A DNA stretch of 64,000 bases from Candidatus Aminicenantes bacterium (GCA_011049545.1 DRHQ01000056.1:2693-66692); one strand, 5' to 3'. Counted from the first letter of the stretch, positions 4,993 through 25,159 are shown. Notes: generated from the letters alone by a model not told the origin. A program made the numbers and translations.

Positions 4993-5019
4993 ATTTTAAG
5001 CTGAGGAAAGGTTTTAGAC

Positions 5020-6471: not shown

Positions 6472-6631
6472 ATGTAGTGTGGGAAAACTTAATTCTAGTC
6501 CTAAGGTTATGTGTCAGGCAGGAAAAAAATAATTACTCGGTGAAACAGGATCTCTAATGAATAAAAATGCGGAATCAGTACTATAAAATGTCAGAATCTT
6601 TACAGGTTCGATTTCGCTCCGGTACAAAAAC

Positions 6632-6660
6632 TTGACGGAGAATAATCCCTCTAGTATATT
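6632..6660 (+). promoter_or_regulatory. sigma70-like promoter for the 6885-26506 gene run
   Basis: TTGACG-17 nt-TATATT in an AT-rich intergenic region. Confidence 0.6.
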
Positions 6661-6884
6661 ATTAATTCTGTAGGATTAGTATGAAATTATTTTTTTTATG
6701 CGAATTTCTATTGATAATAAGGCTGAATGGTTCGTAGATTAAAAAAATAAGATAATATATCAATCGGACAGAATGATCGAGAATAGGAGAAGCAGTAAAA
6801 TTTTTTGAGGTGAGATATGAGGAAAATGGTCGCCTTTACCTGCGGCACGGCGACGCTTTAATGGTCTATCATATTGCTAAATAA

Positions 6885-8333: not shown

Positions 8334-9323
8334 ATGCTTTCTTTTAAACAGAAAAAAAAGCGCTTGTTAACCATCGCAGTCATCGCTGTCTCGGTGGCCG
8401 GGATTCTCTACTTTGGCTATAAGGCCATCCGCGATAATTCAGCACGGAGTCAAGGGAATCCTTTCGAATACGATATTGAGGACTTTAAAAAAAGTGGTGC
8501 TGCTCTGGTTCACTACACAGAGGTCGGTCAAATACACATTGAGTTGAGGTTTGTCTCCGGAGTTTCGGTCGGCCCGGATGACAGAATTTACGTGTCTGGG
8601 GATGATTCCCTGCTCATTTTCAATGGAGACGGAATCCTTCATTCCACAATATCCATGGTTGGACCAGCATACTGTCTTTTTGTGGATAAGAACCACGATT
8701 TGTATCTGGGAATGGATGATCATGTTGAAGTTTATGATCGGAGGGGAGCCAAGAAATCCAGCTGGGAGTCATTGGGAGAGGAGGCCATAATCACTTCGAT
8801 CGCTGTTTCAGAAAATAACGTCTTTGTGGCAGATGCGGGGAATCACATTGTCTGGAAATTAGATAAATCCGGAAACCGGCTGAAAAGAATCGGTGAGAAA
8901 GACGAAGCCAGGGATATCCCCGGATTCATAATCCCCAGCCCCTTTTTCGATGTGGCTCTGGACCCGGATGGGTTTCTTTGGGTCGCCAACACCGGGCGCC
9001 ATTCGCTTGAAAATTATACAAAGGATGGAGACTTCAGAACGTCCTGGGGCGAGTTTTCCATGGAGATCGAAGGGTTTAGTGGATGCTGTAACCCGTCACA
9101 CTTTGCCATTCTAGAGGACGGCTCCTTCGTGACCAGTGAAAAGGGCCTGGCCAGAGTTAAAGTCTACAACCGGATTGGGGAGCTTGTTTCTGTTGTCGCC
9201 CTGCCGGATCAATTCATCGAAGGTACGGTCGGCCTGGATCTGGCCGTGGATTCGTCACAGAGGATCTATGTCCTGGATCCGAGGCAAAAATTAGTACGGA
9301 TATTCGAGAAAAAACAACTTTGA
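8334..9323 (+). CDS. NHL-repeat beta-propeller protein with vicinal-Cys motif (FSGCCNP)
   Basis: N-terminal TM anchor; NHL-like repeats VFVADAGNH, LWVANTGRH, IYVLDP. Confidence 0.75.
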   Translation: MLSFKQKKKRLLTIAVIAVSVAGILYFGYKAIRDNSARSQGNPFEYDIEDFKKSGAALVHYTEVGQIHIELRFVSGVSVGPDDRIYVSGDDSLLIFNGDGILHSTISMVGPAYCLFVDKNHDLYLGMDDHVEVYDRRGAKKSSWESLGEEAIITSIAVSENNVFVADAGNHIVWKLDKSGNRLKRIGEKDEARDIPGFIIPSPFFDVALDPDGFLWVANTGRHSLENYTKDGDFRTSWGEFSMEIEGFSGCCNPSHFAILEDGSFVTSEKGLARVKVYNRIGELVSVVALPDQFIEGTVGLDLAVDSSQRIYVLDPRQKLVRIFEKKQL

Positions 9324-9337
9324 GCCGGGAGAACACC

Positions 9338-9607
9338 ATGATGAAAGATTTTCAGAAGACAAAAAACAGACGTGAGTTTTTAAGGGATGGATTGCGGGCT
9401 GTCTTGTTCGGCGGTCTCGCCTTTACTGGCTTGTTCCTGGGATGGAAAGGACATTCTCTCTCGGGAATAGAACCATCCTGTCTGGTTCGTTTGCCCTGTC
9501 AGGGTTGTTCGAAACTTCCTGACTGCCAAGTGCCCAGAGCCATTGATACAAGGCAGAAGCCACATGATCCCCGAATTCAGTCTTTAAAAACGAAGAGAAA
9601 AGACTGA
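9338..9607 (+). CDS. Small Tat-motif, Cys-rich protein
   Basis: NRREFL twin-arginine motif, hydrophobic helix, C-x4-C-x2-C-x5-C; ATG 9338 follows GGGAG. Confidence 0.65.
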   Translation: MMKDFQKTKNRREFLRDGLRAVLFGGLAFTGLFLGWKGHSLSGIEPSCLVRLPCQGCSKLPDCQVPRAIDTRQKPHDPRIQSLKTKRKD

Positions 9608-9608: not shown

Positions 9609-10196
9609 ATGATAGATAAAACATCAAAAAAACCGCTAAAGCGACGGGATTTCATCCGGAAAAGTCTCCATGCTGTGGCAGGTCTCACAATCGGAGGATT
9701 GGCTGGAATATTGTTCAGCAAGTCTTCTTCCGAAGAGATGGTCTGGCAGCTTGATCCCAATATCTGTATTCAGTGTGAAAAATGTTCGGTTAATTGTGTT
9801 TTACCTCACTCCGCTGTGAAATGTGTCCATTCCTATTCGGTGTGCGGTTATTGTGACCTTTGCAGCGGGTATCTCCAGCCTGGTACCAAAGTGAGAGATA
9901 CAGGGGCGGAAAGCCAGCTCTGTCCATCCGGTGCGCTTAAGCGGACGTACGTTGAAGATCCCTATTTTGAATACACGATCGATGAGAAATTGTGCGTCGG
10001 ATGCGGCAAATGTGTGAAGGGTTGTAATTCTTTCGGAAACGGTTCTTTATATTTACAGACACGACATGATCGCTGTCTGAACTGCAATCAATGCTCCATT
10101 GCCAGAAGGTGCCCTTCCCAGGCCTGGAATCGCGTGCCTGCCAGCCGGTCCTATATTCTCAAGGGTGATGAGAAGAAAAAGTTTTTGAAAAGCTAA
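9609..10196 (+). CDS. Tat-motif polyferredoxin (NapG/MauM-like role)
   Basis: KRRDFI motif plus hydrophobic helix; CIQCEKC, CGYCDLC, CVGCGKC, CLNCNQC..CP. Confidence 0.8.
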   Translation: MIDKTSKKPLKRRDFIRKSLHAVAGLTIGGLAGILFSKSSSEEMVWQLDPNICIQCEKCSVNCVLPHSAVKCVHSYSVCGYCDLCSGYLQPGTKVRDTGAESQLCPSGALKRTYVEDPYFEYTIDEKLCVGCGKCVKGCNSFGNGSLYLQTRHDRCLNCNQCSIARRCPSQAWNRVPASRSYILKGDEKKKFLKS

Positions 10197-10277: not shown

Positions 10278-11630
10278 ATGAGATATAAGTCGAGACGATC
10301 AAAGCTATTCATCGTTGCTTTGTTGTTTCTTTTCCCTCTGCTAGGACTGTCCCAGGTCCCGGAACGCGTCCCAAAGCCCGATTTTGAAACAGATTATATC
10401 CGGCCCGATTTTCTCACCCCCACACCTCGAGCCACTGCTTTGGAATACATAGATATAGGAGTCCTCATCGTGGCTCTTTTTCTGGCCACTTATTTCGCTC
10501 ACAAACAAAGATCGCGGCAGAACATCTTCCTGTTGATGGTGTTTTCTCTCGCCTATTTCGGGTTTTACAGAAAGGGATGCATTTGTCCGATCGGTGCCAT
10601 ACAGAACGTAACCTATGCGTTGTTCAACCCGGCCTACGCCATTCCTGTATTCGTCATTGTATTCTTTGTTCTTCCCCTTGTGTTGGCCTTGTTCTACGGT
10701 CGCACTTTCTGTGCCGCCGTATGTCCTCTCGGGGCGATTCAAGATGCCGTGGTCCTCAAGCCCACCAACGTACCAGGAGGGCTGGCTGCCGTCTTGAGTG
10801 TTCTTCCTTACCTTTATTTGGGACTGGCAGTCCTGCTGGCAGCAACCGGTGCAGGATTTATTATCTGTCAGTATGATCCATTCATCGGTTTCTTCCGTTT
10901 TGGCGCGGATTTTAATATGGTAATTTTTGGCCTGTCCATGCTCTTGCTGGGAACGGTTGTCGCCCGTCCATACTGCCGGTTTCTTTGTCCTTACGGCGTG
11001 CTGCTGAACTGGATGTCCCGTCTGTCAAAGAGGCATGTCGGGATTACACCAGATGAATGCAATAATTGCCGGTTGTGTGAAGAATCCTGTCCGTTTGGAG
11101 CGATAAAGAAACCTGACGAAGCGGCACCGCCGGCAAACAGAGAAGCTGAGGTCAAAAAACTTGCATTCATAATCGTTCTGCTTCCTATCGTTGTGTTTGG
11201 CAGCGGCTGGATCGGATCTCGATTAGAAATCCCGCTGTCCCGCCTGCATGCGAACGTCTCTTTGGCCGAAGAGATTCTGCTGGAGAATTCAGGCCAGAGA
11301 ACAGAGCTGACAGATGAAACAAAAGCGTTTAGAGCTTCGGGAAAGCCGACTGAAGAATTATTTGCGGAAGCAAGCGCCATTCAGCGTCAGTTTAAGGTTG
11401 GAGGATGGATTTTAGGGGGATTTATAGGATTGATCCTCTGTCTAAAGCTTATCAACCTTTTTATGCGGAGGAGACAATCGGAATATTACGTAGATAAAGG
11501 AACGTGTCTCAGCTGCGGGCGATGTTTTTCTTACTGCCCGTACGAACAGGTTCGGTTAGGAATCATAACTCCCAAAGAAGCAGAAAAAATGGGATCCAAA
11601 GAAGTGAAAATAAAACAGTTCAGGGCGTAA
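10278..11630 (+). CDS. Polytopic membrane 4Fe-4S protein (NapH/MauN/YccM family)
   Basis: Multiple TMs; GRTFCAAVCPLG, RPYCRFLCPYG, CNNCRLCEESCP, CLSCGRCFSYCP. Confidence 0.85.
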   Translation: MRYKSRRSKLFIVALLFLFPLLGLSQVPERVPKPDFETDYIRPDFLTPTPRATALEYIDIGVLIVALFLATYFAHKQRSRQNIFLLMVFSLAYFGFYRKGCICPIGAIQNVTYALFNPAYAIPVFVIVFFVLPLVLALFYGRTFCAAVCPLGAIQDAVVLKPTNVPGGLAAVLSVLPYLYLGLAVLLAATGAGFIICQYDPFIGFFRFGADFNMVIFGLSMLLLGTVVARPYCRFLCPYGVLLNWMSRLSKRHVGITPDECNNCRLCEESCPFGAIKKPDEAAPPANREAEVKKLAFIIVLLPIVVFGSGWIGSRLEIPLSRLHANVSLAEEILLENSGQRTELTDETKAFRASGKPTEELFAEASAIQRQFKVGGWILGGFIGLILCLKLINLFMRRRQSEYYVDKGTCLSCGRCFSYCPYEQVRLGIITPKEAEKMGSKEVKIKQFRA

Positions 11631-11634: not shown

Positions 11635-13350
11635 ATGGCTAAACAGGCTGAAGATAATAGAAGAAAAAACAGGGCGAAACTGTGGTACAACATAGCCAAG
11701 AGGATTGCCATTGTTGCCGCCGTGCTGGCAGGGATACTCAGTGTCTTGATGATCGTCAATTACTTGCAGACTAAATCTGTCGATCCGATGAACAGCAAGG
11801 CCATCGCTCAGTTAATGACACAACTCCAGGAAAATCCAAGCGATACGGCTTTAAAGGAACAAATCCGGGCGCTTGATCTACTGGCCAGAAAAGCTTATTT
11901 CATTTATCAATGGCAGATAAGGACAGGAAGTTATCTGCTCTTTGCGTTTGTGCTTATTCTTCTGCTGGCTTTGAAATACATGAGTTCTCTGCAGCCCCGG
12001 TTACCCGACTTGAGCAAAAGCCCTGAGCCGGATGAAGCCCGGGAAAACAAGTTCATCTCTCGAAAGTACATCCTCTTTGGTGGACTGGGATTGTTTATCC
12101 TGGCCTTTATTCTCGGTATTATCTCCCAGACTGATTTGAAAAACATAGGTATCGTCAAAACTAAAGGAGGTCAGGGAGCCGCTGTTTTTCCCAGTATCGA
12201 AGAGATAAGGAATAACTGGCCCGGGTTCCGTGGTCCGGAAGGAATCGGAGTGGCCTATCACACAGATGTGCCCCCGGAATGGGATGGCCCTTCGGGTCAG
12301 AACATTCTTTGGAAAACACCAATTCCTCATCCCGGCTATAATTCACCCATCATTTGGGCAAAAAGAATCTTTCTTTCAGGAGCCGATAGAAGAACACAGA
12401 TTGTCTATTGTGTTGATGCCGATTCAGGGGAAATTCTGTGGCAAAAGGAACTCAATGACATTCCCGGATCCCCTGAGCGGCGGCCCAACGTTACAGAGGA
12501 TACAGGTTATGCCGCCCCTACGATGACGACCGACGGGCAGAGGATTTTTGTTCTGTTTGCGACCGGCGATATCGCCTGTCTCGATTTTGAAGGAAATCGG
12601 ATTTGGGCAAAAAACCTGGGAATGCCTGATAATCATTACGGGCATGGGTCGTCGTTGATTACATATCGAGATCTAGTGATTATTCAGTTCGATCAGAACA
12701 CGGGGGGGCGTCTTCTTGCCTTGAAAACCCTCACCGGAGACCTGGCGTACGACCAGCCCCGGGATGTAGAGATTTCGTGGGCTTCGCCTATACTGGTGAA
12801 TACGGGAAGCCGGACAGAGCTCATTCTCAATTCCAACCCGTTCGTGATGTCTCACGATCCACAAACTGGACAGGAGTTATGGCGAGTGAGATGCATGCAA
12901 GGGGAAATCGGCCCTTCTCCAGCTTATGCGGCGGGGATGGTCTACGTGGTTAACGACTATGCCCGTCTGGCCGCTATAAGACTTGGGGAGACTCCGGATG
13001 TAGTCTGGGAATACATCGATGACCTCTCGGAGGTATCCAGTCCTCTGGCTACAAATGATTTGGTCATCATGGCTGCCAGTTACGGGGCGGTGACATGTTT
13101 TGATAAAAAGACCGGAGAGAGATTATGGATTCAGGATTTTAGTGAGGGATTCTATTCGTCTCCGGTCTTAGTCGGTGATTCTGTTTATCTAATGGATGTG
13201 TCAGGCGTCATCTATGTCTTTAAGGCAGAGAGAGAATTCAGACTTATAAGCCAGCACGAATTAGGTGAAAGGGCAGTAACCATCCCCGCTTTCATGCACA
13301 ACCGGATCTACATCCGTGGAGAGAAGAATTTGTTTTGCATCGGAGATTAA
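11635..13350 (+). CDS. Membrane protein with C-terminal PQQ-like beta-propeller
   Basis: Three N-terminal TM helices, then WPGFRG, GYNSPII, YAAPTMTTDG. Confidence 0.8.
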   Translation: MAKQAEDNRRKNRAKLWYNIAKRIAIVAAVLAGILSVLMIVNYLQTKSVDPMNSKAIAQLMTQLQENPSDTALKEQIRALDLLARKAYFIYQWQIRTGSYLLFAFVLILLLALKYMSSLQPRLPDLSKSPEPDEARENKFISRKYILFGGLGLFILAFILGIISQTDLKNIGIVKTKGGQGAAVFPSIEEIRNNWPGFRGPEGIGVAYHTDVPPEWDGPSGQNILWKTPIPHPGYNSPIIWAKRIFLSGADRRTQIVYCVDADSGEILWQKELNDIPGSPERRPNVTEDTGYAAPTMTTDGQRIFVLFATGDIACLDFEGNRIWAKNLGMPDNHYGHGSSLITYRDLVIIQFDQNTGGRLLALKTLTGDLAYDQPRDVEISWASPILVNTGSRTELILNSNPFVMSHDPQTGQELWRVRCMQGEIGPSPAYAAGMVYVVNDYARLAAIRLGETPDVVWEYIDDLSEVSSPLATNDLVIMAASYGAVTCFDKKTGERLWIQDFSEGFYSSPVLVGDSVYLMDVSGVIYVFKAEREFRLISQHELGERAVTIPAFMHNRIYIRGEKNLFCIGD

Positions 13351-13357
13351 AACGGCT

Positions 13358-15712
13358 ATGAAACCGGAGACAGAAAGCATCAACTCTTTTATCGATCGGA
13401 TTGTCGATGAAATCGGCACTAAAGCCGGCGACGTTATCCCCATTCTGCATGCTATTCAAAGGGAATATAACTATCTTCCAGAATCGGCCCTGCGGAGGGT
13501 CTGCGATATCACGGATATATCGCCCGCTGCCATTACAGGCGTATCGACCTTCTACTCCCAATTCCGGCACACTCCGATGGGGCAGCACATCATCCGCGTC
13601 TGTGTCGGTACGGCCTGTCATGTCAAGGGCTCCGAATTGGTGCATGATGCCTTCTGCCGCGAACTGCATATCGGGGAAGGCCAGGATACTGATCCGGAAG
13701 GTCTATTCACTGTTCAAAAGATTGCTTGCCTTGGCTGCTGTACTATTGCTCCGGTTGTTCAGATCGATGATGTGACTTACGGGCATGTGAAAATAGAAGG
13801 TGTTGCCAATATTCTCCAGGATTTTTCCCATCACGAGAGCCGGAAAATAGTTGAATCCCGGGATCGCAAAATAAAAACTGAGGATGCCGGAGAGATCAAG
13901 ATCGGGCTGGGTTCCTGCTGTGTAGCCAGCGGGAGCAGCCGGGTGCAGCAGGCTCTGGAAATGTGCCTGGAGGAAACCGGCGTCCGTACTCAGGTGAAAA
14001 GGGTTGGGTGTGTGGGGATGTGTCACCGGACACCGCTCTTAGAAGTGAGTGTGCCGGACAAAGACCCGGTTCTTTATGACAGCGTCCAGCCCGAAGATGT
14101 GAGAAGCATTATCCTCAAACACTACAGACCTAAGGCTTTCGGCCAGCGGATCAAAAACGCGGCCTTCAGTCTTATTGAAAAAATCATCGATGATCCGCAT
14201 TCTGGCATGTTCACGCGTCATCCTCTTCATATGCGTGATCCGAGTATCCAGGCTTTTATGGGTAGACAGAAACATATTGCTACTGAGCATTCTGGTCAAA
14301 TCGATCCCATCGACCTTCAAGAATATTGTTCCAAAGGTGGTTTTGAAGCCTTAGAACGCAGTCTTTCGGAGTTCTCTCCTGATGATGTCATCGATCAAGT
14401 CAAATCCAGCGGGCTGAGGGGGAGAGGAGGAGCAGGGTTTCCCACCGGACAGAAATGGCAAATAACGCAGCAAGCAAAAGATAATACGAAATTTATCATT
14501 ATGAATGGCGATGAAGGAGATCCCGGGGCTTTTATGGACCGGATGATTCTGGAATCCTATCCGTTCCGGGTCATCGAAGGTATGATCATCGCTGCCTATG
14601 CCGTTGGCGCTCATGATGGATATTTTTACATTCGCGCTGAATATCCGTTAGCTGTCCAGCGGATCAAGGCGGCCCTCGAGCAGTGCCGGGAGGAAGGATT
14701 TTTAGGAGATGATATTTTAGGAAGTGGATTTTCGTTGCAGTTAAACATTTTGGAAGGAGCCGGCGCGTTTGTTTGTGGAGAGGAAACAGCGCTTATCGCT
14801 TCAATCGAGGGAAGGCGCGGCAATCCGAGCTTCCGTCCCCCTTATCCTGCTCAAAAGGGGCTGTGGGATCATCCGACGTTGGTGAGCAATTGTGAGACAT
14901 TTGCCATAGTGCCCTGGATCATCCGCAACGGGGCTGATGCATTTGCTGAGTTAGGGACGAAAGAGAGTAAGGGGACTAAAGTCTTTTCCCTGGCCGGGAA
15001 AGTTGCCCGCGGAGGACTTATTGAAGTCCCGATGGGAATCACGATTCAAGAGATTGTCAAAGACATCGGCGGCGGCATCGAAAATGGGAGACAATTCAAA
15101 GCCGTTCAGATTGGCGGGCCGTCGGGCGGCTGCATACCGGCCGAACTGGCGCATACCAGAGTCGATTACGAAGACCTCACCAAGGTAGGAGCAATGATGG
15201 GCTCCGGCGGTTTACTGGTGATGGATGATTCAGACTGCATGGTGGATATCTCCCGGTATTTTCTATCTTTTACACAAAACCAGTCCTGCGGGAAATGTAC
15301 GTTTTGCCGCATAGGTACACGCCACATGCTCCGTATTCTCGAGGACCTGTGTGCCGGTAAAGGGAAAGAGGAAGATCTTGTAAAGCTGGAGGAGATCGCC
15401 CATAAAACAAAACAGGGCAGTCTTTGCGGACTGGGGAAAACAGCCCCGAATCCTGTATTGACGACCCTGACTTATTTTAGAAAAGAGTATGAAGCTCATT
15501 TGAGAGGAACATGTCCGGCAAAGAGGTGTAAAGCTCTCATCACCTACACGATCGATGATACGTGTATCGGCTGTACAGTCTGCGCCCAGAAATGTCCGGT
15601 AGGCGCGATTGCAGTCACGCCTTATCAAAGACACATGATCGAGCAAACAGAATGCACGAAATGCGGGACCTGTAAACAGGTGTGTCCGACGGAGTCGGTG
15701 AACATCACATGA
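13358..15712 (+). CDS. Fused NuoE/HydC - NuoF/HydB NADH-binding Fe-S flavoprotein
   Basis: CVGTAC...CLGCC (2Fe-2S), second thioredoxin-like Fe-S domain, GLRGRGGAGFPTG, GDEGDPGAFMDR, GAGAFVCGEETAL, GGPSGG, SCGKCTFCR, C-terminal 2x[4Fe-4S]. Confidence 0.9.
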   Translation: MKPETESINSFIDRIVDEIGTKAGDVIPILHAIQREYNYLPESALRRVCDITDISPAAITGVSTFYSQFRHTPMGQHIIRVCVGTACHVKGSELVHDAFCRELHIGEGQDTDPEGLFTVQKIACLGCCTIAPVVQIDDVTYGHVKIEGVANILQDFSHHESRKIVESRDRKIKTEDAGEIKIGLGSCCVASGSSRVQQALEMCLEETGVRTQVKRVGCVGMCHRTPLLEVSVPDKDPVLYDSVQPEDVRSIILKHYRPKAFGQRIKNAAFSLIEKIIDDPHSGMFTRHPLHMRDPSIQAFMGRQKHIATEHSGQIDPIDLQEYCSKGGFEALERSLSEFSPDDVIDQVKSSGLRGRGGAGFPTGQKWQITQQAKDNTKFIIMNGDEGDPGAFMDRMILESYPFRVIEGMIIAAYAVGAHDGYFYIRAEYPLAVQRIKAALEQCREEGFLGDDILGSGFSLQLNILEGAGAFVCGEETALIASIEGRRGNPSFRPPYPAQKGLWDHPTLVSNCETFAIVPWIIRNGADAFAELGTKESKGTKVFSLAGKVARGGLIEVPMGITIQEIVKDIGGGIENGRQFKAVQIGGPSGGCIPAELAHTRVDYEDLTKVGAMMGSGGLLVMDDSDCMVDISRYFLSFTQNQSCGKCTFCRIGTRHMLRILEDLCAGKGKEEDLVKLEEIAHKTKQGSLCGLGKTAPNPVLTTLTYFRKEYEAHLRGTCPAKRCKALITYTIDDTCIGCTVCAQKCPVGAIAVTPYQRHMIEQTECTKCGTCKQVCPTESVNIT

Positions 15713-17310
15713 AGACCATCAAAATAACCATAGACAACCAGGACATTTCCGTTCCTGCAGACAGCTTAATCCTGGATGCAGCCAGGGAATTGAATATTAA
15801 CATTCCCACACTGTGTTATCTAAATGGATATGAGTGGTTCACGTCCTGTATGATCTGTGTCGTTCATGAGGTGGGAACAGCCCGCCTGCTCCCCTCATGT
15901 TCGGCCACGGTTGCCGAGGGGATGCGGATCGAGACCGAGAATGAAAAGGTCCTGGAGGCTCGGAAAGATGCACTGGATTTTTTATTGAGCGAGCATGTCG
16001 GAGATTGTGATGCACCGTGCCGCCGTGCCTGTCCAGCCCATATGAACATTCCTCTGATGATCAGGCAGATTAAAGATGAACAGCTCGAGGATGCGATCAG
16101 AACAGTGAAGAAAGATATCGCCTTGCCTGCGGTTTTGGGACGAATCTGTTCGGCGCCCTGTGAAAACGGGTGTCATCGAAAATCCTATGACAGCGCTGTT
16201 TCAATCTGTTCTTTGAAAAGATATGTGGCGGATGTTGATCTGGCTCAAGAGCCTCCTTTCTGCCCCGCCTCAAAAGCAAATTCAGGAAAAAAAGTCGCCA
16301 TCATCGGGGCGGGACCGGCAGGCCTATCTGCGGCCTATTATCTTCTTCAAGACGGCCATGCCTGTCATGTGTATGACAGTAACCCTCAACCAGGGGGCAT
16401 GCTTCGTTATGGTGTTCCCGATGAGGACCTGCCCCAAGCCGTCCTTGATCTGGAGATAGAACGGATTGCAGAGCTAGGAGCCGAATTTTTAATGGAGCGC
16501 GCTCTTGGCACCCAGTTGAGATGGGATGATATGAGAAAGACATACGATGTGGTCATCATAGCCGCTGGCAAAATAGACCCCCGGGTGTTTGAGACTTCAG
16601 GGCTTGAGCTTTCCCCCCGGGGCATAAGTATCAACACCAAGACTTTTGAAACGAGTGTTCCAGGTGTTTTCGCTGGCGGGAATGCCGTTTCAGAATCTCG
16701 TATGGCCATCCGGGCAGTTGCTCATGGCAAGAATCTGGCCTATTCTGTGAATCAGTTTTTAGAAACCGAAGCTGTTACCGGCCCGCCGCGGCGATTCCAT
16801 TCCAGGCTGGGAAAAATTGGTGAAGAAGAAGTAAGCGAATTCATGAAAGAGGCGGAAGGGGACGAAAGGATAATTCCGAAAGGCGGTTTAAAGGATGGTT
16901 ATAAGGATGAGGAGGCTGTCAGGGAGTCGCGACGTTGCTTTGGCTGTGACTGTCGAAAGCCGGATTCCTGCAAATTGCGGCAGTATTCAGAAGTGTATCA
17001 GGCCAATCAGCGCCGCTTCACTTTCGTAGAGAGGAAGAGATTTCAAAAAAACATCCAGCATGACCACGTCATTTATGAACCTGGAAAGTGCATCAAATGC
17101 GGATTGTGCATACAGATCACAAAAAAGGCTGGTGAAAAACTCGGTTTAACTTTTATCGACCGTGGATTCGATGTTCGCGTCGAGACTCCGTTCGGAGAGC
17201 CACTCAGCCAGGGGCTGAAAAAGGTGGCCGGAGACTGCATCTCGGCCTGTCCCACAGCAGCGCTTTCCTGGAGGGACCGGAATAGGGAAAAAGCATCTCC
17301 AATTGAGTGA
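15709..17310 (+). CDS. 2Fe-2S / GltD(NfnB)-like FAD / 2x4Fe-4S oxidoreductase subunit
   Basis: HydA/NuoG-type N-terminus (IPTLC..SCMIC..C), APCRRACP..GRICSAPCE, GAGPAGL, TSVPGVFAGG, CIKCGLC..CISACPT; ATGA overlap with upstream stop. Confidence 0.85.
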   Translation: MKTIKITIDNQDISVPADSLILDAARELNINIPTLCYLNGYEWFTSCMICVVHEVGTARLLPSCSATVAEGMRIETENEKVLEARKDALDFLLSEHVGDCDAPCRRACPAHMNIPLMIRQIKDEQLEDAIRTVKKDIALPAVLGRICSAPCENGCHRKSYDSAVSICSLKRYVADVDLAQEPPFCPASKANSGKKVAIIGAGPAGLSAAYYLLQDGHACHVYDSNPQPGGMLRYGVPDEDLPQAVLDLEIERIAELGAEFLMERALGTQLRWDDMRKTYDVVIIAAGKIDPRVFETSGLELSPRGISINTKTFETSVPGVFAGGNAVSESRMAIRAVAHGKNLAYSVNQFLETEAVTGPPRRFHSRLGKIGEEEVSEFMKEAEGDERIIPKGGLKDGYKDEEAVRESRRCFGCDCRKPDSCKLRQYSEVYQANQRRFTFVERKRFQKNIQHDHVIYEPGKCIKCGLCIQITKKAGEKLGLTFIDRGFDVRVETPFGEPLSQGLKKVAGDCISACPTAALSWRDRNREKASPIE

Positions 17311-17316
17311 TGAGAA

Positions 17317-18477
17317 ATGAGGAAATATAGATATATCGTATTCCTGTTTTTATTCTCAGTTCTATTGATAGCTTGTTCGAAAAAAGAGGTTGCCAAGAGG
17401 ATTATAGATGTTGAGAAGGTGAGTTGGCCTATTTTTCGAGGAGATTCCAGGTTATCCGGAGTGGCGGCCGATGAATTGCCTGAAGAGTTGACTTTATTGT
17501 GGTCTTTCAAGACTGAGTCATGGATAATCTCGTCCCCGGTTATGGGTTTCGGCCGAGTCTATATCGGTTCGAGCGATGGAAAAGTGTATTCGATAAACCT
17601 GATAGATGGGAGTAAAGTCTGGGAGTTCGATACCGGAGACGACATCGAAGCCTCACCTTTACTCCTGGATGGAGCCATTTACGTTGGAAATCTGAGCGGA
17701 GAGTTCTTTTCCCTGGACGCGCATACAGGACAGGTTCGATGGAAATATAAGTGCCAAAACTCCATCTACGGCTCAGCCAACTGGGTGAGAGACCCGGATA
17801 ATAAAAAACTTTTGATACTGGTAGGAAGCTATGACAACAGGTTATACTGTCTTGAGGCGGCAACAGGAAAATTGAATTGGTCGTACGAAACCGATAACTA
17901 TATCAACGGAACTCCCGCCACAGACGGTGTTCACGTTGTCTTTGGCGGCTGTGATGAATTGCTCCACATTTTATCTATCTCTGATGGAACCAAGGCAGGA
18001 GAAGTCTGGGCTGGCTCTTACATTCCCGCTTCTGCTGCCTTTGTGGAAAACAGAGCTTATCTTGGACATTATGATAATAAACTGGTTTGTATTGACACTG
18101 ATGAGAAAAAAATTGTCTGGGAGTACGAAGATAAAGACCATCCGGATGCATTTTTTTCTTCTCCTGCCGTAGGAAAAGACCGTGTTCTCATCGGGTCACG
18201 TGATGGATATCTGCATTGTGTAAACCGGAAAAACGGCGAAAAAATTTGGGCCTGGCAAAGTCGCGACGACATAGACAGTTCACCCGTTATCTCTGGAAAT
18301 AAAGTTGTAGTCGCGTCGATGGATGGAAGACTCTATGTTGTTGATCTAAAGGATGGAAAGGAAATCTGGTCTTATGAGATCGGTGCGGCCATCTTCGGCT
18401 GCCCTGCTGTGGCAGGAGGATTCATCGTTATCGGTGCCGACGATGGACGGATCTATGCCTTCGGAGAAAAGTTATGA
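17317..18477 (+). CDS. PQQ-like (BamB-fold) beta-propeller lipoprotein
   Basis: Lipobox LIAC; WPIFRG; regular SSP...GSxDG.xY...G...W repeats. Confidence 0.8.
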   Translation: MRKYRYIVFLFLFSVLLIACSKKEVAKRIIDVEKVSWPIFRGDSRLSGVAADELPEELTLLWSFKTESWIISSPVMGFGRVYIGSSDGKVYSINLIDGSKVWEFDTGDDIEASPLLLDGAIYVGNLSGEFFSLDAHTGQVRWKYKCQNSIYGSANWVRDPDNKKLLILVGSYDNRLYCLEAATGKLNWSYETDNYINGTPATDGVHVVFGGCDELLHILSISDGTKAGEVWAGSYIPASAAFVENRAYLGHYDNKLVCIDTDEKKIVWEYEDKDHPDAFFSSPAVGKDRVLIGSRDGYLHCVNRKNGEKIWAWQSRDDIDSSPVISGNKVVVASMDGRLYVVDLKDGKEIWSYEIGAAIFGCPAVAGGFIVIGADDGRIYAFGEKL

Positions 18478-19760
18478 AAGTTGCGTATGTAACCCCTGGA
18501 TCCGGCCAGAGATTCTACTGTCAGAACTGTTTCCGAGATACCGCATTACTCCAGTCGCTGGCTTCCCTCGGGCATGATGTGGTCAAGGTTCCCATGTATC
18601 TCCCTTCAGATCTGGAAGGGAATGCAAATATAACTGAAACGCCGGTATTTTATGGCGCTATCAATGTCTTTCTCAAAGAAAAATTGCCCTTTTATAGGCA
18701 TGCTCCTGAATGGATAGAACGTATGTTCGATTCTTCTGTTTTACTGCATCTGGCAGCAAAAAAATCCGGCTCAACGCGCGCCACCGGACTCGAAGAAATG
18801 ACACTATCCATGCTGCACGGGGAAAGGGGAAGGCAGGCGTCAGAGCTGGACCATCTTATCCGATACCTCAGGACTGAGATAGCTCCGGATGTCGTTCATC
18901 TCTCGAATTCCCTGTTACTCGGACTGGCCCACAGACTCAAAAATGATCTGGGGACAGGTGTAGTGTGTTCACTCCAGGATGAGAATGAATGGGTTGATTT
19001 GATGGACGAACATTACCAGAGTCAGGTCTGGAACTTAATGGCCGAAAAAGCCGTTGATGTCGACCTCTTTGTGACAGCCAGTCAGTTTTATTCCAAACAA
19101 TCTCAAAATCAGCTGAAAATGCCTGCAGACAGGATAAGGGTGATATATGGCGGGATTGATTTTAAGGGGTACCAAAGATCAACTCTTCCCTTTGACCCTC
19201 CGGTCATCGGATACTTGTGCAGGATGTCTGAATACTTCGGACTGGGGATACTCGTTGACGCTTTTATCGAGTTAAAAAAAGAGAGCCGGTTTAAGGATTT
19301 AAGATTGCACCTGACCGGCGGTTACTCGAGCGATGATAAACCTTTTGTGAACAGACAGTTGAAAAAAATATCTGAACACGGTTTCGCTGAAGATGTAAGA
19401 GTATTCAAGGACTTCTGCAAGGACAGCCGGATAAAATTTCTCAAATCCCTGACGATGCTCTCTGTGCCTGTCCCTACCGGAGAGGCATTTGGCGCCTATC
19501 AAGTCGAAGCCTTGGCAGCCGGAGTTCCTATCGTTCAGCCGAATGTGGGCTGCTATCCAGAATTTATCGAGATGACTAAAGGCGGCGTCATCTATGAACC
19601 GAATACAAGCGAAAAACTGGCGACGGCCATAGCTTCCCTTCTTTCCGATCAGGAAAAAGTGAGAAAGCTGGGCGAACAGGGAAGAAGAGTCGTGCTGGAG
19701 CAATTTTCCATGGACCAGATGGCAAAAAATATTGAGGAGATTTATAACGATGTTGCTTGA
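18474..19760 (+). CDS. Glycosyltransferase family 4 with N-terminal FYCQNC motif
   Basis: EAFGAYQVEALAAGVP (E-x7-E GT4 signature), PDVVHLSN. Confidence 0.85.
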   Translation: MKVAYVTPGSGQRFYCQNCFRDTALLQSLASLGHDVVKVPMYLPSDLEGNANITETPVFYGAINVFLKEKLPFYRHAPEWIERMFDSSVLLHLAAKKSGSTRATGLEEMTLSMLHGERGRQASELDHLIRYLRTEIAPDVVHLSNSLLLGLAHRLKNDLGTGVVCSLQDENEWVDLMDEHYQSQVWNLMAEKAVDVDLFVTASQFYSKQSQNQLKMPADRIRVIYGGIDFKGYQRSTLPFDPPVIGYLCRMSEYFGLGILVDAFIELKKESRFKDLRLHLTGGYSSDDKPFVNRQLKKISEHGFAEDVRVFKDFCKDSRIKFLKSLTMLSVPVPTGEAFGAYQVEALAAGVPIVQPNVGCYPEFIEMTKGGVIYEPNTSEKLATAIASLLSDQEKVRKLGEQGRRVVLEQFSMDQMAKNIEEIYNDVA

Positions 19761-20442
19761 ACTCAAAAATATTTCCAAAAAATATGAAATTCCGTCCGGC
19801 GAGGGTCATACAACTGTCCTTAGGGACATCTCCCTTCAGATCATCCAGGGCGAATCGGTGGCTATTGTCGGGCCATCGGGATCCGGGAAAAGCACTCTTT
19901 TGAATATCATCGGTGCACTTGATAAGCCCACCTCGGGAGTGGTGATATTTGCGGGGAAAAATCTGGCTGACCTGGATGATGCGGAACTATCTCAAATCAG
20001 AAACCAGGAGATCGGTTTTGTTTTTCAACTCCATCATCTGCTTCCCCAGTGTACGGTTTTCGAAAATGTTTTGATTCCGACGATTCCTCCTGGATTGGAA
20101 AAAGAAGATGAGGACGTTCAGGAAAGAGCCACAGATTTACTGGGAAGAGTTGGCCTTGAAAAACACAAAGATTATTTTCCGGCGCAACTGTCCGGAGGTG
20201 AGATGCAGCGTGTGGCTGTCATCAGAGCCCTCATAAACAGGCCAAAGCTGATCCTGGCGGACGAACCAACAGGTTCTCTGGACAGGGAATCCTCCGAGAA
20301 TCTTGGTCAACTTCTGGTCAAAGTGAATAAGGAAGAGGGGACAACCTTAATAACTGTCACTCATTCGATCGAGATTGCGCGGCTGATGGACAAGGTGTAC
20401 AGACTCCAGGACGGGATACTAGAGAATGATCTAATCGAATGA
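19750..20442 (+). CDS. ABC transporter ATP-binding protein (LolD/MacB-type)
   Basis: [35 protein letters not shown]. Confidence 0.9.
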
Positions 20443-23400
20443 ATCTTTGGAAATTACTCTGGCGCAGCCTTGCCTATTATCGAAAAACACATCTCTGGGT
20501 CGTCCTAGGAACCCTGATAAGCACGGCCATGCTTGTCGGTGCCCTGGTCATCGGTGATTCTGTTCGCCACAGCCTTCAACAGATTGTGTCTGACAGGCTC
20601 GGAACGACGGAGTTTGCTCTATCTTCAGAGGATCGTTTCTTCGAGGCTCGCTTGGCAGATGACCTGGCGAAATCCCTCGGAACCACCGTTGCTCCCCTGC
20701 TTCAAACGAGAGGGATGGCCATAGCTGAGGGCGGGAAGCGCCGAGTCAACAGCATTCAGGTGGTCGGGATAGATGCCCGTTTTGGAGAGATGGGCGGTGC
20801 TGAGGATTTTTACAGTCAAATTGCTCCCGATGAAGTCATCGTCAACCGTCAGCTTGCAGAACGTCTGGGGGTAGAAAAAAACGATGAGATATTACTCCGG
20901 TTTCAGAAGCTGGATGCTATGCCCAAGGATGCACCTCTTTCTTTGGATTCTGAATCCGCGGTTGCCAGGCGCTTTCGTGTGAGAGGCATTGCCTTGGATT
21001 CTGAATTCGGAAGCTTTAATCTCAAGGCGGATCAAGTCATCCCCAGCACTGCGTTTGTTTCCTTGTCTGGCATATCGCGAGAAATGGGTTTTGCCCAAAA
21101 GGCAAATGTTCTGCTTGTTTCAGAAAGAGAAGGAAATCCTCTGGACATCCAGATAGTGAATGACGCATCCCGGGACGCCTGGACGCTTGCTGATTCCGGT
21201 CTTGAATTGAGGGAAATTCACGGCAAGACCATTGTCGAACTCAGATCGAGTCGAATCTTCCTGGATCCTTCTGTTGTCGACGGCGCCTTGAGTCTAAGCG
21301 AGTCGGCTCAGCCCATACTGACATATTTTGTCAACGAACTGCGCCGAGGCGAGAGATCAACGCCATATTCCTTTATCTCTGCCCCGGGCGCTCCCGTCGT
21401 TCCTCCTGACATGAAAGATGATGAGATCATCATTAATGAATGGCTTGCCAGGGATTTACAGGCGGGTGCGGGTGACCGGCTTCAGCTGACTTATTATATA
21501 CTCGGACCAAGACGTGATCTGGAAGAGTTGAACTCTGATTTCAGGGTGAAGGCTGTAGTGCCGTTGAGAGGAATTTATGCGGATAAAGATTTACTGCCTG
21601 ATTTTCCCGGCTTAGCAGACGAGGCAAACTGCCGCGATTGGAAGCCCGGGATACCTATAGATCTGGATAAGATCCGGGATAAAGATGAGGATTATTGGGA
21701 CGATTACAGGGGAACTCCCAAAGCATTCGTGACTCTGGCCGCAGCTCAGAGGATGTGGGCCAACCGCTTCGGGAATGTTACGGCAGTACGGTTTCCAGGT
21801 TTAAAAAAGGACGATGTACAGAAGAATCTTAAGAAGGCCATAGATCCGTCCGGGCTCGGATTTATCTTCCGGGATCTTAAGAGTGAAGGGCTCCGGGCGA
21901 GTTCACAGTCCGTTAGTTTCGCTCAGCTTTTTCTTGGGCTGAGTTTCTTCATCATCGTCGCGGCTTTGTTATTGACAAGTTTACTGTTTGTTTTCAACAC
22001 AGAAAATCGAACAGAGGAAAACGGGTTGTTTCTCGCCTTAGGATTTTCCTCGAAGGCCGTGAGGCGGTTGGTGCTGCGAGAAGGTGCAGTACTCGTGGTG
22101 CTGGGCAGTTTGCTGGGGAGTTTTGCGGGAATCCTTTATAACCTGCTCATCCTCAAGGCACTGGAAACAGTCTGGCGTGGGGCTGTGGGAACATCGGTAC
22201 TCCATTTTCATTTCAAGTTATCCTCTATCCTTCTGGGGGCATCGGCCGGCATGGTTGCCGCATTGTTCACGATTTGGCTGGTGACCAGGAGACAGATCAG
22301 TCAGCCCATTTCCGGCTTGCAGAAGGGTCTGGCAAAGGTAGAGACAATCTGGAAAAAAAAGCCCGGGATGAGTCTGCTCGTCGGCATTTCATCCTTGCTT
22401 GCAGTCCTGTTCATCCTGGTAGTAACGGATGTTGGAAGAGGAGAAAACGCTTTTACGTTTTTCTTTATTGCTGGCTCCTTGCTTCTGGTCGGCGGGATGG
22501 CGTTGGCAAATGTCATGCTTTATAAATTGGGGAGAAACACAAGAGGAGTACCTCTCAGTCTTCTTAATCTCGGCGCTCGCAATAACGCAAGAAACCGGAT
22601 GCGCAGCATCACCCTGATAGGTCTTCTGGCTTGTGGTGTATTCATCGTTTTCACTGTCGGAGCCAATCGTATCAATGCCCTTAAAGATGCCGAGAGAAAG
22701 GATTCAGGCACGGGTGGATTTGCTCTCTATGGGGAAAGTTCTATTCCTGTTCTGTATGACCTTAACAGCCAAAAGGGGAAGCAGTTTTATGGATTGGAGC
22801 GCCCAGGGACAATAGATGTGAGTTATGTCCAGTTTCGTCTGAAAGAAGGGGATGACGCGAGCTGTTTGAACCTCAATCGTGTTTCAACTCCTCCGTTGAT
22901 CGGCGTCGATCCTGAAGAGCTAAGCAGGCGAAAAGCCTTTACGTTCGCTGAGACGACGGATGAGGTTAATCCGGGAAATCTCTGGTCGATCCTCGAACAA
23001 AATTTATCGGACGGGACTATCCCCGCAGTCGCCGACCAATCTGTTATCGTTTGGGGATTGGGCATGGCGGTGGGTGATTACCTGACATATCTGGATGAAA
23101 AAGGCGAGACCTTTCAACTCAAGCTTGTCGGGGGATTGGCCAATTCGATTTTTCAAGGGAAAATCATCATTTCCGAAAAAGCTTTCATTCAAAAATTTCC
23201 CTCTATAAGCGGGTACCGGCTCTTTCTTGTAGAAGCCCCCTTTGAAAAAATGGATGAAGTTAGAGAAAGCATATCCTGGGCCATGCAGGATCAAGGTCTG
23301 GATTTGATGGCTGCCTCTACCCGGCTGGCAGAGTTTAACACGGTGCAGAACACCTATCTATCCATTTTCCTGATTCTTGGCAGCTTTGGCTTATTATTGG

Positions 23401-25145: not shown

Positions 25146-25159
25146 AAAGGAGAATAAAG

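Follow-up and report, generated by a model that had tools for sequence, protein, structure and literature searches.

An NfnA/StnC-like iron-sulphur flavoprotein without an NADPH-binding domain, encoded beside membrane and periplasmic Fe-S proteins in Candidatus Aminicenantes

Introduction

If a GltD/NfnB/StnC-type flavoprotein has no NADP(H)-binding domain, where do its electrons go? The question is raised by an open reading frame (ORF) in a 64,000-nt stretch of Candidatus Aminicenantes DNA (GCA_011049545.1 DRHQ01000056.1:2693-66692; hereafter the window, numbered from its first letter). The original prediction, made from the sequence alone, paired this protein with a HydBC-like subunit, held that it was not a normal NADPH transhydrogenase, and pointed to another electron acceptor, possibly a neighbouring membrane Fe-S protein. 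A literature search for this module found no paper.

Results

The target protein and its cofactor sites

Three features are central:

13316..15712, + strand: partner subunit, an NfnC-NfnB fusion (Pfam, NCBIfam and PDB matches)
15709..17310, + strand: NfnA/StnC-like Fe-S flavoprotein of 533 aa, the target (Pfam/NCBIfam, PDB match, alignment, AlphaFold2 model)
16567..16680, + strand: junction where the domain is missing, residues ~287-324 of the target (alignment; spanned by an independent contig)

Translation of the target ORF was free of stops, and its ATG (15709) overlapped the upstream TGA as ATGA. Ligands were assigned to clusters from motifs and an alignment with NfnA: C36, C47, C50 and C64 to a [2Fe-2S] cluster; H96, C100, C415 and C421 to a NuoG-type [4Fe-4S] cluster split around an insert; C104, C108, C147, C151, C155, C410 and C413 with K170/C167 to two GltD-type [4Fe-4S] clusters; and C461, C464, C467 and C514 to a second NuoG-type [4Fe-4S] cluster. 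The GltD Fe-S motif was permuted, its RCxxC lying C-terminal to the FAD domain. The FAD Rossmann domain contained G200xG202xxG205, D223, G229 G230 and GVFAGGN325. Pfam Fer4_20 matched at 73 bits, and the protein scored below all NCBIfam GltD-type cut-offs (e.g. 183.6 against 471.75 for TIGR01316 and 134.5 against 482.95 for TIGR01318).

The sequence details on which the prediction was built held up. The run after YDVVIIAAG (279-287), claimed as about 16 residues, was 17 residues long (KIDPRVFETSGLELSPR, followed by GISINTKTFETSVPGVFAGGN). A motif scan of the 533 aa found one G.G..[GA] motif, at residue 200, and no second GxGxxG/A motif, as expected from the reported absence of a second GGGNxAxD. 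The AGGN noted in place of AGGD placed Asn325 at the canonical GD Asp position.

The AlphaFold2 (AF2) model of the target (pLDDT 93.1, pTM 0.90) was confident through the FAD domain (blocks 86-98). It superposed on NfnA of Caldicellulosiruptor saccharolyticus (9bov_A) with Z 37.1 and rmsd 2.8 Å over 523 of 533 residues, and on P. furiosus NfnI-L with Z 27 and rmsd 1.6 Å over 255 residues.

Extent and reality of the missing domain

Searches of the PDB with phmmer matched the target in two stretches to each solved relative: residues 1-289 and 280-519 to 9bov_A 1-288 and 427-671, and residues 2-295 and 305-520 to StnC (8oh5_C) 2-294 and 451-672. This left ~138-155 residues of the solved NfnA/StnC proteins without a counterpart. 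In a MAFFT alignment, the target and five relatives shared a gap of ~145 columns against the NfnB (GGGNVAMD, AGGD) and an 839-aa GltD-bearing paralogue (GGGNVAFD) of the same genome. At the junction the target had 36 residues, polar rather than hydrophobic, in which the small beta-meander of the FAD domain was kept; NADPH-using relatives carried 146-211 extra residues there. The formate-dehydrogenase-like C-terminal domain of NfnA/StnC was also missing.

The chance that this gap is an assembly error or recent decay is negligible: the fragmented state of the window genome (161 contigs, 89.7% complete) is all that speaks for it, and it is refuted by the short form at 80/80 genome loci and in 137 of 151 representative proteins (the window protein and its best 150 matches), by a 577-nt contig from an independent run of another study (X7) that covers 16288-16864 including the junction with one mismatch, by the intact frame and by the confident AF2 model. 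Among the orthologous ORFs of public genomes, 77/80 encoded 509-579 aa and the remaining three were cut by contig ends; the best 120 database clusters were all of 485-574 aa. These results indicated that the window protein is an NfnA/StnC-type subunit that has cleanly lost the NADPH Rossmann domain. The short form is a large, old and uncharacterised family, not a local deletion. Since it is without an NADP(H) domain, the target cannot be a normal NADPH transhydrogenase.

The fused partner subunit

The stop of the partner gene overlapped the target start. Residues 26-170 of the partner were an NfnC/NuoE-like [2Fe-2S] domain (2Fe-2S_thioredx, E 8.5e-47), so that the NuoE-like BfuC part of NfnABC/StnABC is found here within the N-terminal 170 residues, fused and not separate. 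The NfnB/NuoF-like remainder comprised a Trx-like N-domain, an FMN/NADH site, NADH_4Fe-4S and a C-terminal 2x[4Fe-4S] ferredoxin domain (Pfam Complex1_51K, NADH_4Fe-4S and Fer4_21), which are the parts of a BfuB subunit in those enzymes. Its best PDB match was NfnB 9n5u_B (E 2e-213, residues 193-798), and the NfnB/StnB matches, which included 9bov_B and 8oh5_B, ranged from E 2e-213 to 7e-203. The Trx-like and ferredoxin domains both aligned to NfnB; they correspond to the additional cluster domains that BfuB has in the conserved BfuBC core and that, in the passages of Schut et al. 2022 (PMC9304861) that deal with them, are absent from non-bifurcating NuoF homologues. The NfnC-NfnB fusion was present in 60 of the 65 short-form loci with a match. 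Thus the closest solved relatives of the two subunits were NfnA/StnC and NfnB/StnB, in agreement with the predicted pairing.

Conservation of the Fe-S wire and the flavin face

Conservation was compared between 129 short-form representatives (50%-identity clusters) and 13 long forms, which keep the NADPH domain. Each Cys/His ligand was conserved in 126-129 of the 129 short forms, GxGxxG (the ADP-binding motif) in 128-129, and an acidic residue at position 223 in 125. The FRLP motif was complete in the long forms at P, F/Y and R (13/13 each); in the short forms P was found in 31/129 and R in 32/129, with no aromatic among the common residues. D240 of the window protein aligned with R239 of StnC, a residue important for activity according to the mutants described in the relevant part of PMC10482914. 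At the GD Asp position the short forms (n=129) had S (24), G (23), D (20), N (18) or A (16), and the long forms an acidic residue in 10/12. Positions 237-240 and 325 were highly variable among short forms, at least 6 representatives of the 150 listed had lost GVFAGG, and some others had junctions of only 12-18 residues. FAD-C was the least conserved folded part of the short forms (0.45 vs 0.55-0.58 for the Fe-S domains); the long forms had 0.60 vs 0.62-0.66. On these alignments, constraint on the flavin-face residues that serve NADPH-using relatives is relaxed among short forms, a second respect in which the target departs from a normal NADPH transhydrogenase.

The gene cluster and its conservation

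The target and its partner lie in a conserved, operon-like cluster. Its other genes, all on the + strand, were as follows, with their occurrence among the 46 loci whose upstream flank reached 8 kb or more, or the 45 loci whose downstream flank did so:

3628..8318, +: three PQQ_2 propeller genes at the cluster head (3628-4992, 5020-6471, 6885-8318)
8334..9323, +: membrane-anchored NHL-repeat propeller (Pfam; 36/46 loci)
9320..9607, +: small Tat-signal protein with conserved C54, C60, C63 and C69 (recognisable in only 10/46 loci)
9609..10196, +: NapG-like Tat polyferredoxin with an RRDFIR signal (39/46 loci)
10278..11630, +: NapH/NosR-like integral membrane Fe-S protein, 450 aa (39/46 loci)
11635..13350, +: PQQ_2/BamB-like propeller with three N-terminal TM helices (42/46 loci)
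17317..18477, +: PQQ_2/BamB-like propeller lipoprotein, directly 3' of the target (38/45 loci)
18474..19760, +: GT4 glycosyltransferase (35/45 loci)
19732..20442, +: ABC ATPase (36/45 loci)
20439..23732, +: FtsX/MacB-type permease, 1097 aa (34/45 loci)
23793..26506, +: two PQQ_2 propeller genes at the cluster tail (23793-25145, 25127-26506)

The genes were tightly packed, with overlapping stops and starts, and the fused partner was found at 43 of the 46 upstream loci. The NHL propeller had an invariant vicinal Cys pair (G250 C251 C252 N253 P254), and the Tat polyferredoxin 17 conserved Cys, enough for about four [4Fe-4S] clusters. The membrane protein (AF2 pLDDT 82.6) contained three CX3CP-type motifs, and two CxxCxxCxxxCP motifs with a TM hairpin between them. 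It fell below the curated cut-offs (47.3 vs 213 bits for TIGR02163 and 44.8 vs 1000 for NF046105); by curated score it is only NapH-like, not a member of the NapH/NosR family. No GltD-like gene was present within the cluster in the window. Elsewhere the window genome encoded three complete GltD-type proteins (NfnAB, a NuoF-GltD fusion and a HydA-N/GltD protein). Evidence of transcription was weak: a single RNA library yielded six short contigs, of which two were identical to the window sequence.

The NapH-like and Tat ferredoxin genes co-occurred at the same 39/46 loci. Because 7/46 well-flanked loci were without the nearby pair and a chromosome copy of the short form (L060) stands alone, this membrane pair may not be obligatory. 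In one database cluster (P0218) the short form was fused in frame to the downstream propeller via the signal/TM helix of the latter; in another (P0138, 1133 aa) it was fused to a complete GltD module (GGGFTAMD, AAGD) and a 2x[4Fe-4S] ferredoxin domain.

At the loci of NADPH-domain-bearing relatives, none of the NapH-like, membrane or propeller cluster genes was found (8/8), and separate NuoE/NuoF-like genes lay upstream in 5/8. Where neighbours were scanned against Pfam (L101 and L102), separate NuoE- and NuoF-like genes preceded the NADPH-domain-bearing gene, with complex I antiporter-type subunits downstream at L101. The relatives that keep the domain are plain NfnABC operons without membrane or propeller genes.

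Discussion

The whole NfnA electron wire was kept in the target: a [2Fe-2S] cluster, two NuoG-type and two GltD-type [4Fe-4S] clusters and an FAD-type dinucleotide fold. On balance, with confidence a little better than even, we favour an Nfn-derived NADH (possibly ferredoxin) module in which a protein partner, able to pass electrons through the membrane, has taken the place of the NADPH site. The target would be the BfuA-type subunit of this enzyme, whose ancestor would be a compact NfnABC transhydrogenase. Because an Nfn-type protein without the NADPH domain is nearly always encoded with membrane and periplasmic Fe-S and propeller proteins, the target probably delivers electrons from cytoplasmic NADH to a hitherto undescribed redox machine of the envelope. 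The conserved gene order fits the original prediction that electrons may pass to a different acceptor, perhaps the membrane Fe-S protein encoded nearby.

In the sections describing NfnA and StnC (PMC11829005, PMC10482914), FAD terminates the chain A7-A6-A3-A2-A1-B1. In the target system, the partner FMN would be the site of NADH oxidation, perhaps coupled to that of reduced ferredoxin, as when Nfn runs in reverse, and electrons would pass along B1-A1-A2-A3-A6-A7 to the flavin end. This end, which meets NADPH in NfnA/StnC, would be uncovered and would meet a protein partner, most likely the NapH-like protein by way of its cytoplasmic 2x[4Fe-4S] domain. As membrane acceptor or donor, this protein would hand electrons on through the membrane to the Tat ferredoxin and periplasmic propellers; the data allow flow the other way just as well. 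The flavin would perform no hydride chemistry and would act as a one-electron relay or docking cofactor.

A bolder form of this proposal, which we put forward tentatively, is a heme-free, quinone-independent transmembrane conduit: a confurcating Nfn-derived core (NADH + reduced ferredoxin) would send ~-400 mV electrons from the uncovered flavin/A7 through the NapH-like protein and the Tat polyferredoxin to the periplasmic propellers, with the invariant vicinal Cys-Cys of the NHL protein as a possible terminal redox centre. If true, it would represent a novel class of membrane-coupled Bfu enzyme and a novel route by which low-potential reductant reaches the cell envelope.

The relaxed flavin face and the loss of GVFAGG, together with the very short junctions and the low conservation of FAD-C, could mean that the flavin is dispensable rather than a relay. 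The FAD domain would then be a structural relic, the target would only scaffold the Fe-S wire, and its flavin end would have no redox partner; electrons would leave elsewhere, e.g. to a soluble ferredoxin at the ferredoxin-like domain of NfnB or from NuoG-type clusters that became exposed once the Fdh-like domain was lost. We think this rather unlikely. The A6/A7 branch leads only to flavin in the available descriptions of NfnA/StnC, yet its seven Cys are kept in 126-129/129 short forms; such tight conservation is not expected of a dead-end branch, and the near-universal ADP-binding motif and the confident AF2 model of the FAD domain argue the same way.

Less probable again is an uncovered flavin that reacts with a small molecule, for instance menaquinone at the membrane surface, or an oxidant such as O2, H2O2 or polysulfide. 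The pair would be an NADH (plus ferredoxin):acceptor oxidoreductase, and the NapH-like protein a separate quinol dehydrogenase, like NapH; NCBIfam names NapH-family proteins quinol dehydrogenases. With the NADPH domain gone, the flavin face should be open, to go by the portions of the NfnA/StnC descriptions that concern it, and quinone- and peroxide-linked Bfu enzymes are predicted in part of Schut et al. 2022 (PMC9304861). However, a catalytic flavin site is expected to be conserved near the isoalloxazine, where 237-240 and 325 vary widely, the junction is not hydrophobic, and no quinone-site motif was noticed.

Use of NADPH might also be retained in trans, with NADPH supplied by a distinct, complete GltD/NfnB-like protein docked onto the short form. 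The P0138 fusion and the GltD-type proteins elsewhere in the genome lend this some colour, but only one cluster of the 150 representatives carries the fusion, the window cluster is without a GltD-like gene and the other copies belong to units of their own, which makes it very unlikely.

Comparison with known systems

Among the closest known systems to the target is NfnA (C. saccharolyticus, 9BOV/9BP5, PMC11829005; T. sibiricus, 9N5U/9N5V, PMC12018979), by sequence (E 1e-104 for 9bov_A, 1e-88 for 9n5u_A) and by fold (Z 37.1 and 34.6 over 520-523 residues). Both have the BfuA architecture of NfnABC/StnABC, i.e. an N-terminal [2Fe-2S] domain and NuoG-type sites, with an NfnL/GltD-like module (two [4Fe-4S] clusters and an FAD fold) inserted in the NuoG-type Fe-S domain; they also share a Lys where NfnA ligates its flavin-proximal cluster, and an NfnB-like partner over the full NfnB length. 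Unlike NfnA, the target is without the NADP(H) Rossmann domain, which leaves ~138 residues of 9bov_A unpaired, and without the NuoG/Fdh-like C-terminal domain that houses further clusters in the chain past residue ~730; at the flavin site, D240 and N325 stand in place of the FRLP Arg and the GD Asp. NfnABC is a soluble three-gene unit, whereas in the window NfnC is fused to NfnB and the target is encoded alongside membrane and periplasmic proteins.

StnC of StnABC from Sporomusa ovata (8OH5, PMC10482914) has the architecture of NfnA and matched the target with E 1.5e-93 and Z 35.9. Its K170, the ligand of cluster C7, aligns with K170 of the target; the target differs in D240 for R239 and in missing the NADPH domain and the FdhF-like tetramerisation domain.

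The nearest relatives that keep the NADPH domain are compact NfnA-like proteins of ~630-720 aa (36-44% identity; NF009454/PRK12814, named 'putative NADPH-dependent glutamate synthase small subunit' in NCBIfam). They share the domain order of the target and are also without the Fdh-like tail; the target matched their 657-position profile in two stretches at 435.5 bits, against a cut-off of 916. Unlike the target, they have the 146-211 extra junction residues, P-x-[FY]-R-L-P and a mostly acidic GD residue, and the NapH/propeller cluster was at 0/8 of their loci. With GltD/NfnB of the glutamate synthase small-subunit family, the target shares Fer4_20; the NADPH fold is absent from it and its scores lie below the curated ones.

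NapGH/NosGH pairs likewise join a Tat-exported polyferredoxin to a CX3CP membrane protein whose double [4Fe-4S] domain is cytoplasmic, and the NCBIfam matches are weak (NapH 47 bits, NosR 45 bits, NapG weaker; family cut-offs 213-1000). NapGH is linked to quinol; unlike NapGH/NosGH, the pair described here lies in a cluster with no Nap or Nos catalytic subunit and is linked to an NADH-type flavoprotein.

A NfnA/StnC-like protein without an NADPH domain

The following features were located in the target gene.

15709-17310, + strand: target ORF, 533 residues, no stops in the translation
Residues 2-78: Fer2_4 domain (Pfam)
Residues 100-180: Fer4_20 domain (Pfam)
Residues 194-237: start of a FAD-type Rossmann fold (Pfam)
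Residues 459-519: NuoG-type ferredoxin-like domain (Pfam)

The upstream gene's stop and the target's start ATG overlap as ATGA, the downstream gene starts 7 bases past the target stop, and genes from 8334 to 23732 overlap or almost touch. It had been predicted from the DNA alone that the NADP(H)-binding domain was missing, with only a short stretch after YDVVIIAAG and no second GGGNxAxD-type motif. All three points held: YDVVIIAAG (279-287) was followed by 17 residues and then GISINTKTFETSVPGVFAGGN, and the only copy of the G.G..[GA] motif was at residue 200. In a phmmer search of all PDB chains the top matches were 9bov_A (NfnA of C. saccharolyticus, E 1e-104), 8oh5_C (StnC of S. ovata, E 1.5e-93) and 9n5u_A (NfnA of T. 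sibiricus, E 1.2e-88). All PDB matches came in two pieces with the NADPH domain skipped between them (e.g. query 1-289 to 9bov_A 1-288, and query 280-519 to 9bov_A 427-671). The solved NfnA/StnC chains have ~450-500 residues more, a Fdh/NuoG-like domain that the target lacks.

Alignment with an NfnB and a GltD-bearing protein left the NADPH-domain columns empty in the target. The gap, of ~145 columns, was shared by five relatives and was filled by the NfnB of the same genome (501 aa, motifs GGGNVAMD and AGGD) and by its 839-aa GltD-bearing paralogue (GGGNVAFD). In the GltD Fe-S domain, the RCxxC pair sits after the FAD domain, indicating a permuted module, as in NfnA. Another contig of this genome (C148:1-3258) carries a NuoF-GltD fusion of >1079 aa that runs off the contig, its NADPH motif intact and its long repetitive tail rich in Glu, Lys, Ala and Pro.

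An AlphaFold2 model of the target, built from an 80-sequence alignment, was confident (pLDDT 93.1, pTM 0.90). It superposed on 9bov_A (Z 37.1, rmsd 2.8 A, 523 of 533 residues), 8oh5_C (Z 35.9) and 9n5v_A (Z 34.6), with query-normalised Foldseek TM-scores of 0.85-0.88, and residues 98-353 matched P. furiosus NfnI-L (Z 27.3, rmsd 1.6 A, 255 residues). Because the model superposes on the NfnA/StnC structures, the remaining domains are predicted to keep the NfnA arrangement, with the NADPH domain cleanly excised. In the ESM Atlas the sequence was present without a model, and the nearest clusters showed the same split into short forms, without the NADPH domain, and long forms, NfnA-like relatives that keep it.

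The short form is shared by orthologues

In a search of 5.8 billion proteins, 6774 of 8000 scored candidates matched the target at E <= 1e-20, and the best 120 of these (62-93% identity) were all 485-574 aa long. Whether orthologues share the deletion was checked by scanning one genome per prokaryote species: 80 loci were obtained, with ORFs of 509-579 aa in 77 and cut by contig ends in the other 3. The stretch 9300-18500 was near-identical in runs of several marine-sediment studies. A 577-nt contig from an independent run (X7) corresponded to 16288-16864; it spans the junction, differs at one position and has no insertion listed there. Taken with the short orthologues and the confident model, this rules out an artefact as the cause of the short form. 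A possible in-frame TGA in one orthologue (genome G159) was found to lie outside the ORF; that gene is intact and the TGA is not a selenocysteine site.

When 1.84 billion representatives were scanned in full with HMMER, 20128 matched at E <= 1e-3, of which 2110 reached E <= 1e-30. The window protein and the 150 best matches (50%-identity representatives) were classified by junction length, indicating a large family: 137 of the 151 were short forms (junction <60 residues), 12 were long forms (146-211 residues, in proteins of 628-723 aa) and 2 were intermediate.

The Fe-S wire is conserved and the hydride site is relaxed

Residue conservation was examined in the 80-sequence alignment, which combined the window protein with 50 proteins from the database and 29 loci of other phyla. 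Invariant Cys and His residues were C36, C47, C50 and C64; H96 and C100; C104, C108, C147, C151 and C155; C410, C413, C415 and C421; and C461, C464, C467 and C514. By motif pattern and the nomenclature of PMC11829005, these ligands were provisionally assigned to clusters A1, A2, A3, A6 and A7. Also invariant were G200, G202, G205, G229 and G230; position 223 was D or E throughout, and K170 was present in 77 of 80. K170 aligns with K170 of StnC, the lysine that ligates the cluster nearest the flavin (PMC10482914). The change of the usual AGGD to AGGN, the remaining sequence feature of the original prediction, was matched in this alignment by a loss of Asp throughout: position 325 was N in 63, S in 8, A in 4, G in 3 and E in 2 sequences, and D in none.

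Conservation in short forms (full-length representatives, n=129) and the 12 long forms
Fe-S ligands: short, 126-129/129; long, kept
GxGxxG: short, 128-129/129; long, kept
Acidic residue at 223: short, 125/129; long, kept
Position 325 (Asp of GD): short, S24 G23 D20 N18 A16; long, acidic in 10/12

The GltD motif P-x-[FY]-R-L-P was whole in all 13 long rows (12 long forms and the own-genome paralogue). In the short forms, P was kept in 31 and R in 32 of 129, with no aromatic among the common residues, and the GVFAGG motif was lost altogether in at least six representatives. The Arg of P-x-[FY]-R-L-P corresponds to R239 of StnC, and mutating that residue cripples Stn (PMC10482914); the window protein has D240 at this position. 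The target thus consists of a whole Nfn-type wire ending in a FAD-type fold, with the NADPH site gone and the hydride-site residues relaxed. The main rival explanation, that the flavin domain is a scaffold only, is opposed by the A6/A7 ligands and the ADP-binding motif, which are almost perfectly conserved.

The target gene is linked to membrane Fe-S genes

The cluster spans 3628-26506 in the window, and the following genes lie upstream of the target.

8334-9323: NHL propeller
9609-10196: Tat polyferredoxin
10278-11630: NapH-like membrane Fe-S protein
13316-15712: NfnCB fusion partner, 798 aa, a NuoE-like part (residues 26-170) joined to an NfnB-like part

Partner residues 193-798 matched 9n5u_B (E 2e-213) and 9bov_B, and residues 314-796 matched StnB (8oh5_B). 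The match to NfnB covered both the Trx-like domain at the N-terminus and the 2x[4Fe-4S] domain at the C-terminus; in T. sibiricus NfnABC, ferredoxin binds beside the latter (PMC12018979). Of 65 short-form loci with a match, 60 had the NfnC-NfnB fusion; three of the others were cut by contig ends and two had NuoF only.

Neighbours of short-form genes (sufficiently flanked loci only; >= 30% identity, >= 50% coverage)
Upstream, NfnCB fusion: 43/46 loci
Upstream, TM-anchored PQQ_2 propeller: 42/46 loci
Upstream, NapH-like membrane protein: 39/46 loci
Upstream, Tat polyferredoxin: 39/46 loci
Upstream, NHL propeller: 36/46 loci
Upstream, small Tat protein: 10/46 loci
Downstream, propeller lipoprotein: 38/45 loci
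Downstream, ABC ATPase: 36/45 loci
Downstream, GT4 glycosyltransferase: 35/45 loci
Downstream, FtsX/MacB permease: 34/45 loci

The target is therefore linked in gene order to membrane Fe-S genes. The NapH-like protein had about eight hydrophobic helices, conserved Cys residues (C101/C103, C145/C149, C197 and C233/C237) and two CxxCxxCxxxCP motifs (261-272 and 410-421), both to one side of a TM hairpin and probably cytoplasmic by the positive-inside rule. By sequence it gave generic ferredoxin-motif matches only to solved structures, and its AlphaFold2 model (pLDDT 82.6) had no structural precedent among them (Foldseek, 0 matches at E <= 0.001).

Eight propeller genes lie in the cluster, seven PQQ_2/BamB-like and one NHL, several with TM anchors or lipoprotein signals. 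The NHL propeller has a vicinal Cys pair (G250-C251-C252-N253-P254) in >= 90% of 39 orthologues, which might form a redox-active disulfide where the chain ends in the periplasm. Against the PDB, the NHL propeller and the propeller lipoprotein matched only generic or designed propellers and BamB, giving no functional clue. The GT4 glycosyltransferase has a conserved C16-x2-C19, and the MacB/FtsX-type permease is 1097 aa long. Just past the cluster, an MttB-family (trimethylamine methyltransferase-like) gene (29183-30619) adjoins an amino-acid permease and a DAO-type flavoprotein. Six short RNA contigs were found in one metatranscriptome-labelled run, two of them identical to the window (14575-14760 and 17482-17675), which is too little for claiming expression of the cluster.

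Long-form loci and exceptions

A metagenome scan seeded with long forms yielded eight long-form and five short-form loci. The NapH-like protein, Tat ferredoxin, propeller, NHL and GT4 had no match in any of the eight long-form loci. A NuoF-like gene was upstream in five of the eight, the other three beginning at a contig end, and the two loci inspected were plain NuoE, NuoF and long NfnA-like units. In one long-form locus (L101:3339-12811), the long NfnA-like gene and separate NuoE and NuoF are immediately followed by two complex I antiporter-type (Proton_antipo_M) genes. Two of the five short-form loci had the membrane cluster, one was a short contig with the fusion only and two had neither. 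From the contrast between long and short loci, therefore, the membrane cluster and the fusion of NfnC with NfnB go together with the loss of the NADPH domain.

Two short-form loci without the cluster had neighbours indicating no alternative partner. In one (L060) these are glycan-degradation genes. In the other (L054:8212-14631; genome labelled Cloacimonetes) the short form has MurJ, the lipid II flippase, on one side and propeller-GT4-DUF2062 on the other, a neighbourhood that hints at a link to envelope synthesis; the NfnCB fusion was not found in the ~6 kb inspected upstream or by blastp over the 10-kb upstream flank.

History and distribution

A FastTree tree of 148 rows was built with junction columns removed; four fragments and an outgroup that had misaligned were left out. 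Of the short forms, 130 grouped with one intermediate in a clade of 131 rows (SH-like support 98), and 11 of the 12 long forms fell within a 13-row group (support 94). The tree did not resolve three basal rows and requires at least four changes of state. In an AU test on a 61-row subsample, monophyly of all 46 short rows was not rejected (p 0.354), the group having been chosen after seeing the tree. The simplest reading is that the NADPH domain was lost in one old event, with perhaps a few more.

The short form occurs in sediment and gut lineages, in genomes labelled Aminicenantes, Zixibacteria, KSB1, Latescibacterota, Bacteroidota, Verrucomicrobiota, Kiritimatiellae, Lentisphaerae, Spirochaetes, Cloacimonetes and Armatimonadia. 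One carrier genome is labelled Victivallis vadensis and several are labelled Draconibacterium, making the family bench-testable. The distribution of the gene is patchy: none of six same-genus genomes (76-87% complete) had it, 2 of 24 same-family genomes did (these six counted in), and it was missing from 16 other genomes of the same order. In a sample of 150 other genomes from the phylum, with nine candidates scored for each, one had it at E <= 1e-100. This patchiness and the spread over many phyla suggest an accessory, transferable cluster. G+C was 0.47-0.50 across the cluster versus 0.40-0.43 in the first 6 kb of the window and at 28-30 kb; the higher value, with the absence of the gene from most close relatives, is consistent with horizontal acquisition.

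A proposed electron path

NADH, perhaps with reduced ferredoxin, would feed the FMN/B1/C1 site, from which electrons would run through A1-A2-A3-A6-A7 to the flavin end, where the chain also terminates in NfnA and StnC (PMC11829005, PMC10482914). A protein partner may stand in for NADPH there. The best candidate is the ferredoxin-like domain that the NapH-like protein would expose to the cytoplasm, and this protein might hand electrons on to the Tat polyferredoxin and propellers; the reverse direction is possible. Two database fusions, a short form joined via a TM helix to the downstream propeller (P0218, 867 aa) and one joined to a complete NADPH-type GltD module and a 2x[4Fe-4S] domain (P0138, 1133 aa), fit a protein partner at the membrane, each being one cluster and possibly a gene-calling accident. 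In a further protein (P0140, 951 aa), the short form is joined to a URO-D/methyltransferase-like domain.

Comparison with known systems

No description of an NADPH-domain-less NfnA, or of its gene cluster, was found in full-text searches of openly accessible literature. The family might be among the unassigned clades in the supplementary tables of Schut et al. 2022 (PMC9304861), who describe the function of BfuB clades 1-17 as not obvious. Across many anaerobic phyla, the short-form genes occur together with those of a membrane and periplasmic Fe-S system. Should a membrane partner dock at the flavin end, the short-form module would be the first of the Nfn type to be coupled to electron transfer across a membrane, and NADH- or ferredoxin-derived electrons could reach the periplasm without quinones or cytochromes. 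We file the short-form module with the Bfu/Nfn enzymes. Bfu-type enzymes are defined by a "third substrate". In the short form, an Nfn enzyme has lost its site for this substrate, yet strong selection preserves the wire toward it; the short form is also a natural experiment on the contribution of the non-bifurcating FAD in NfnA and StnC.
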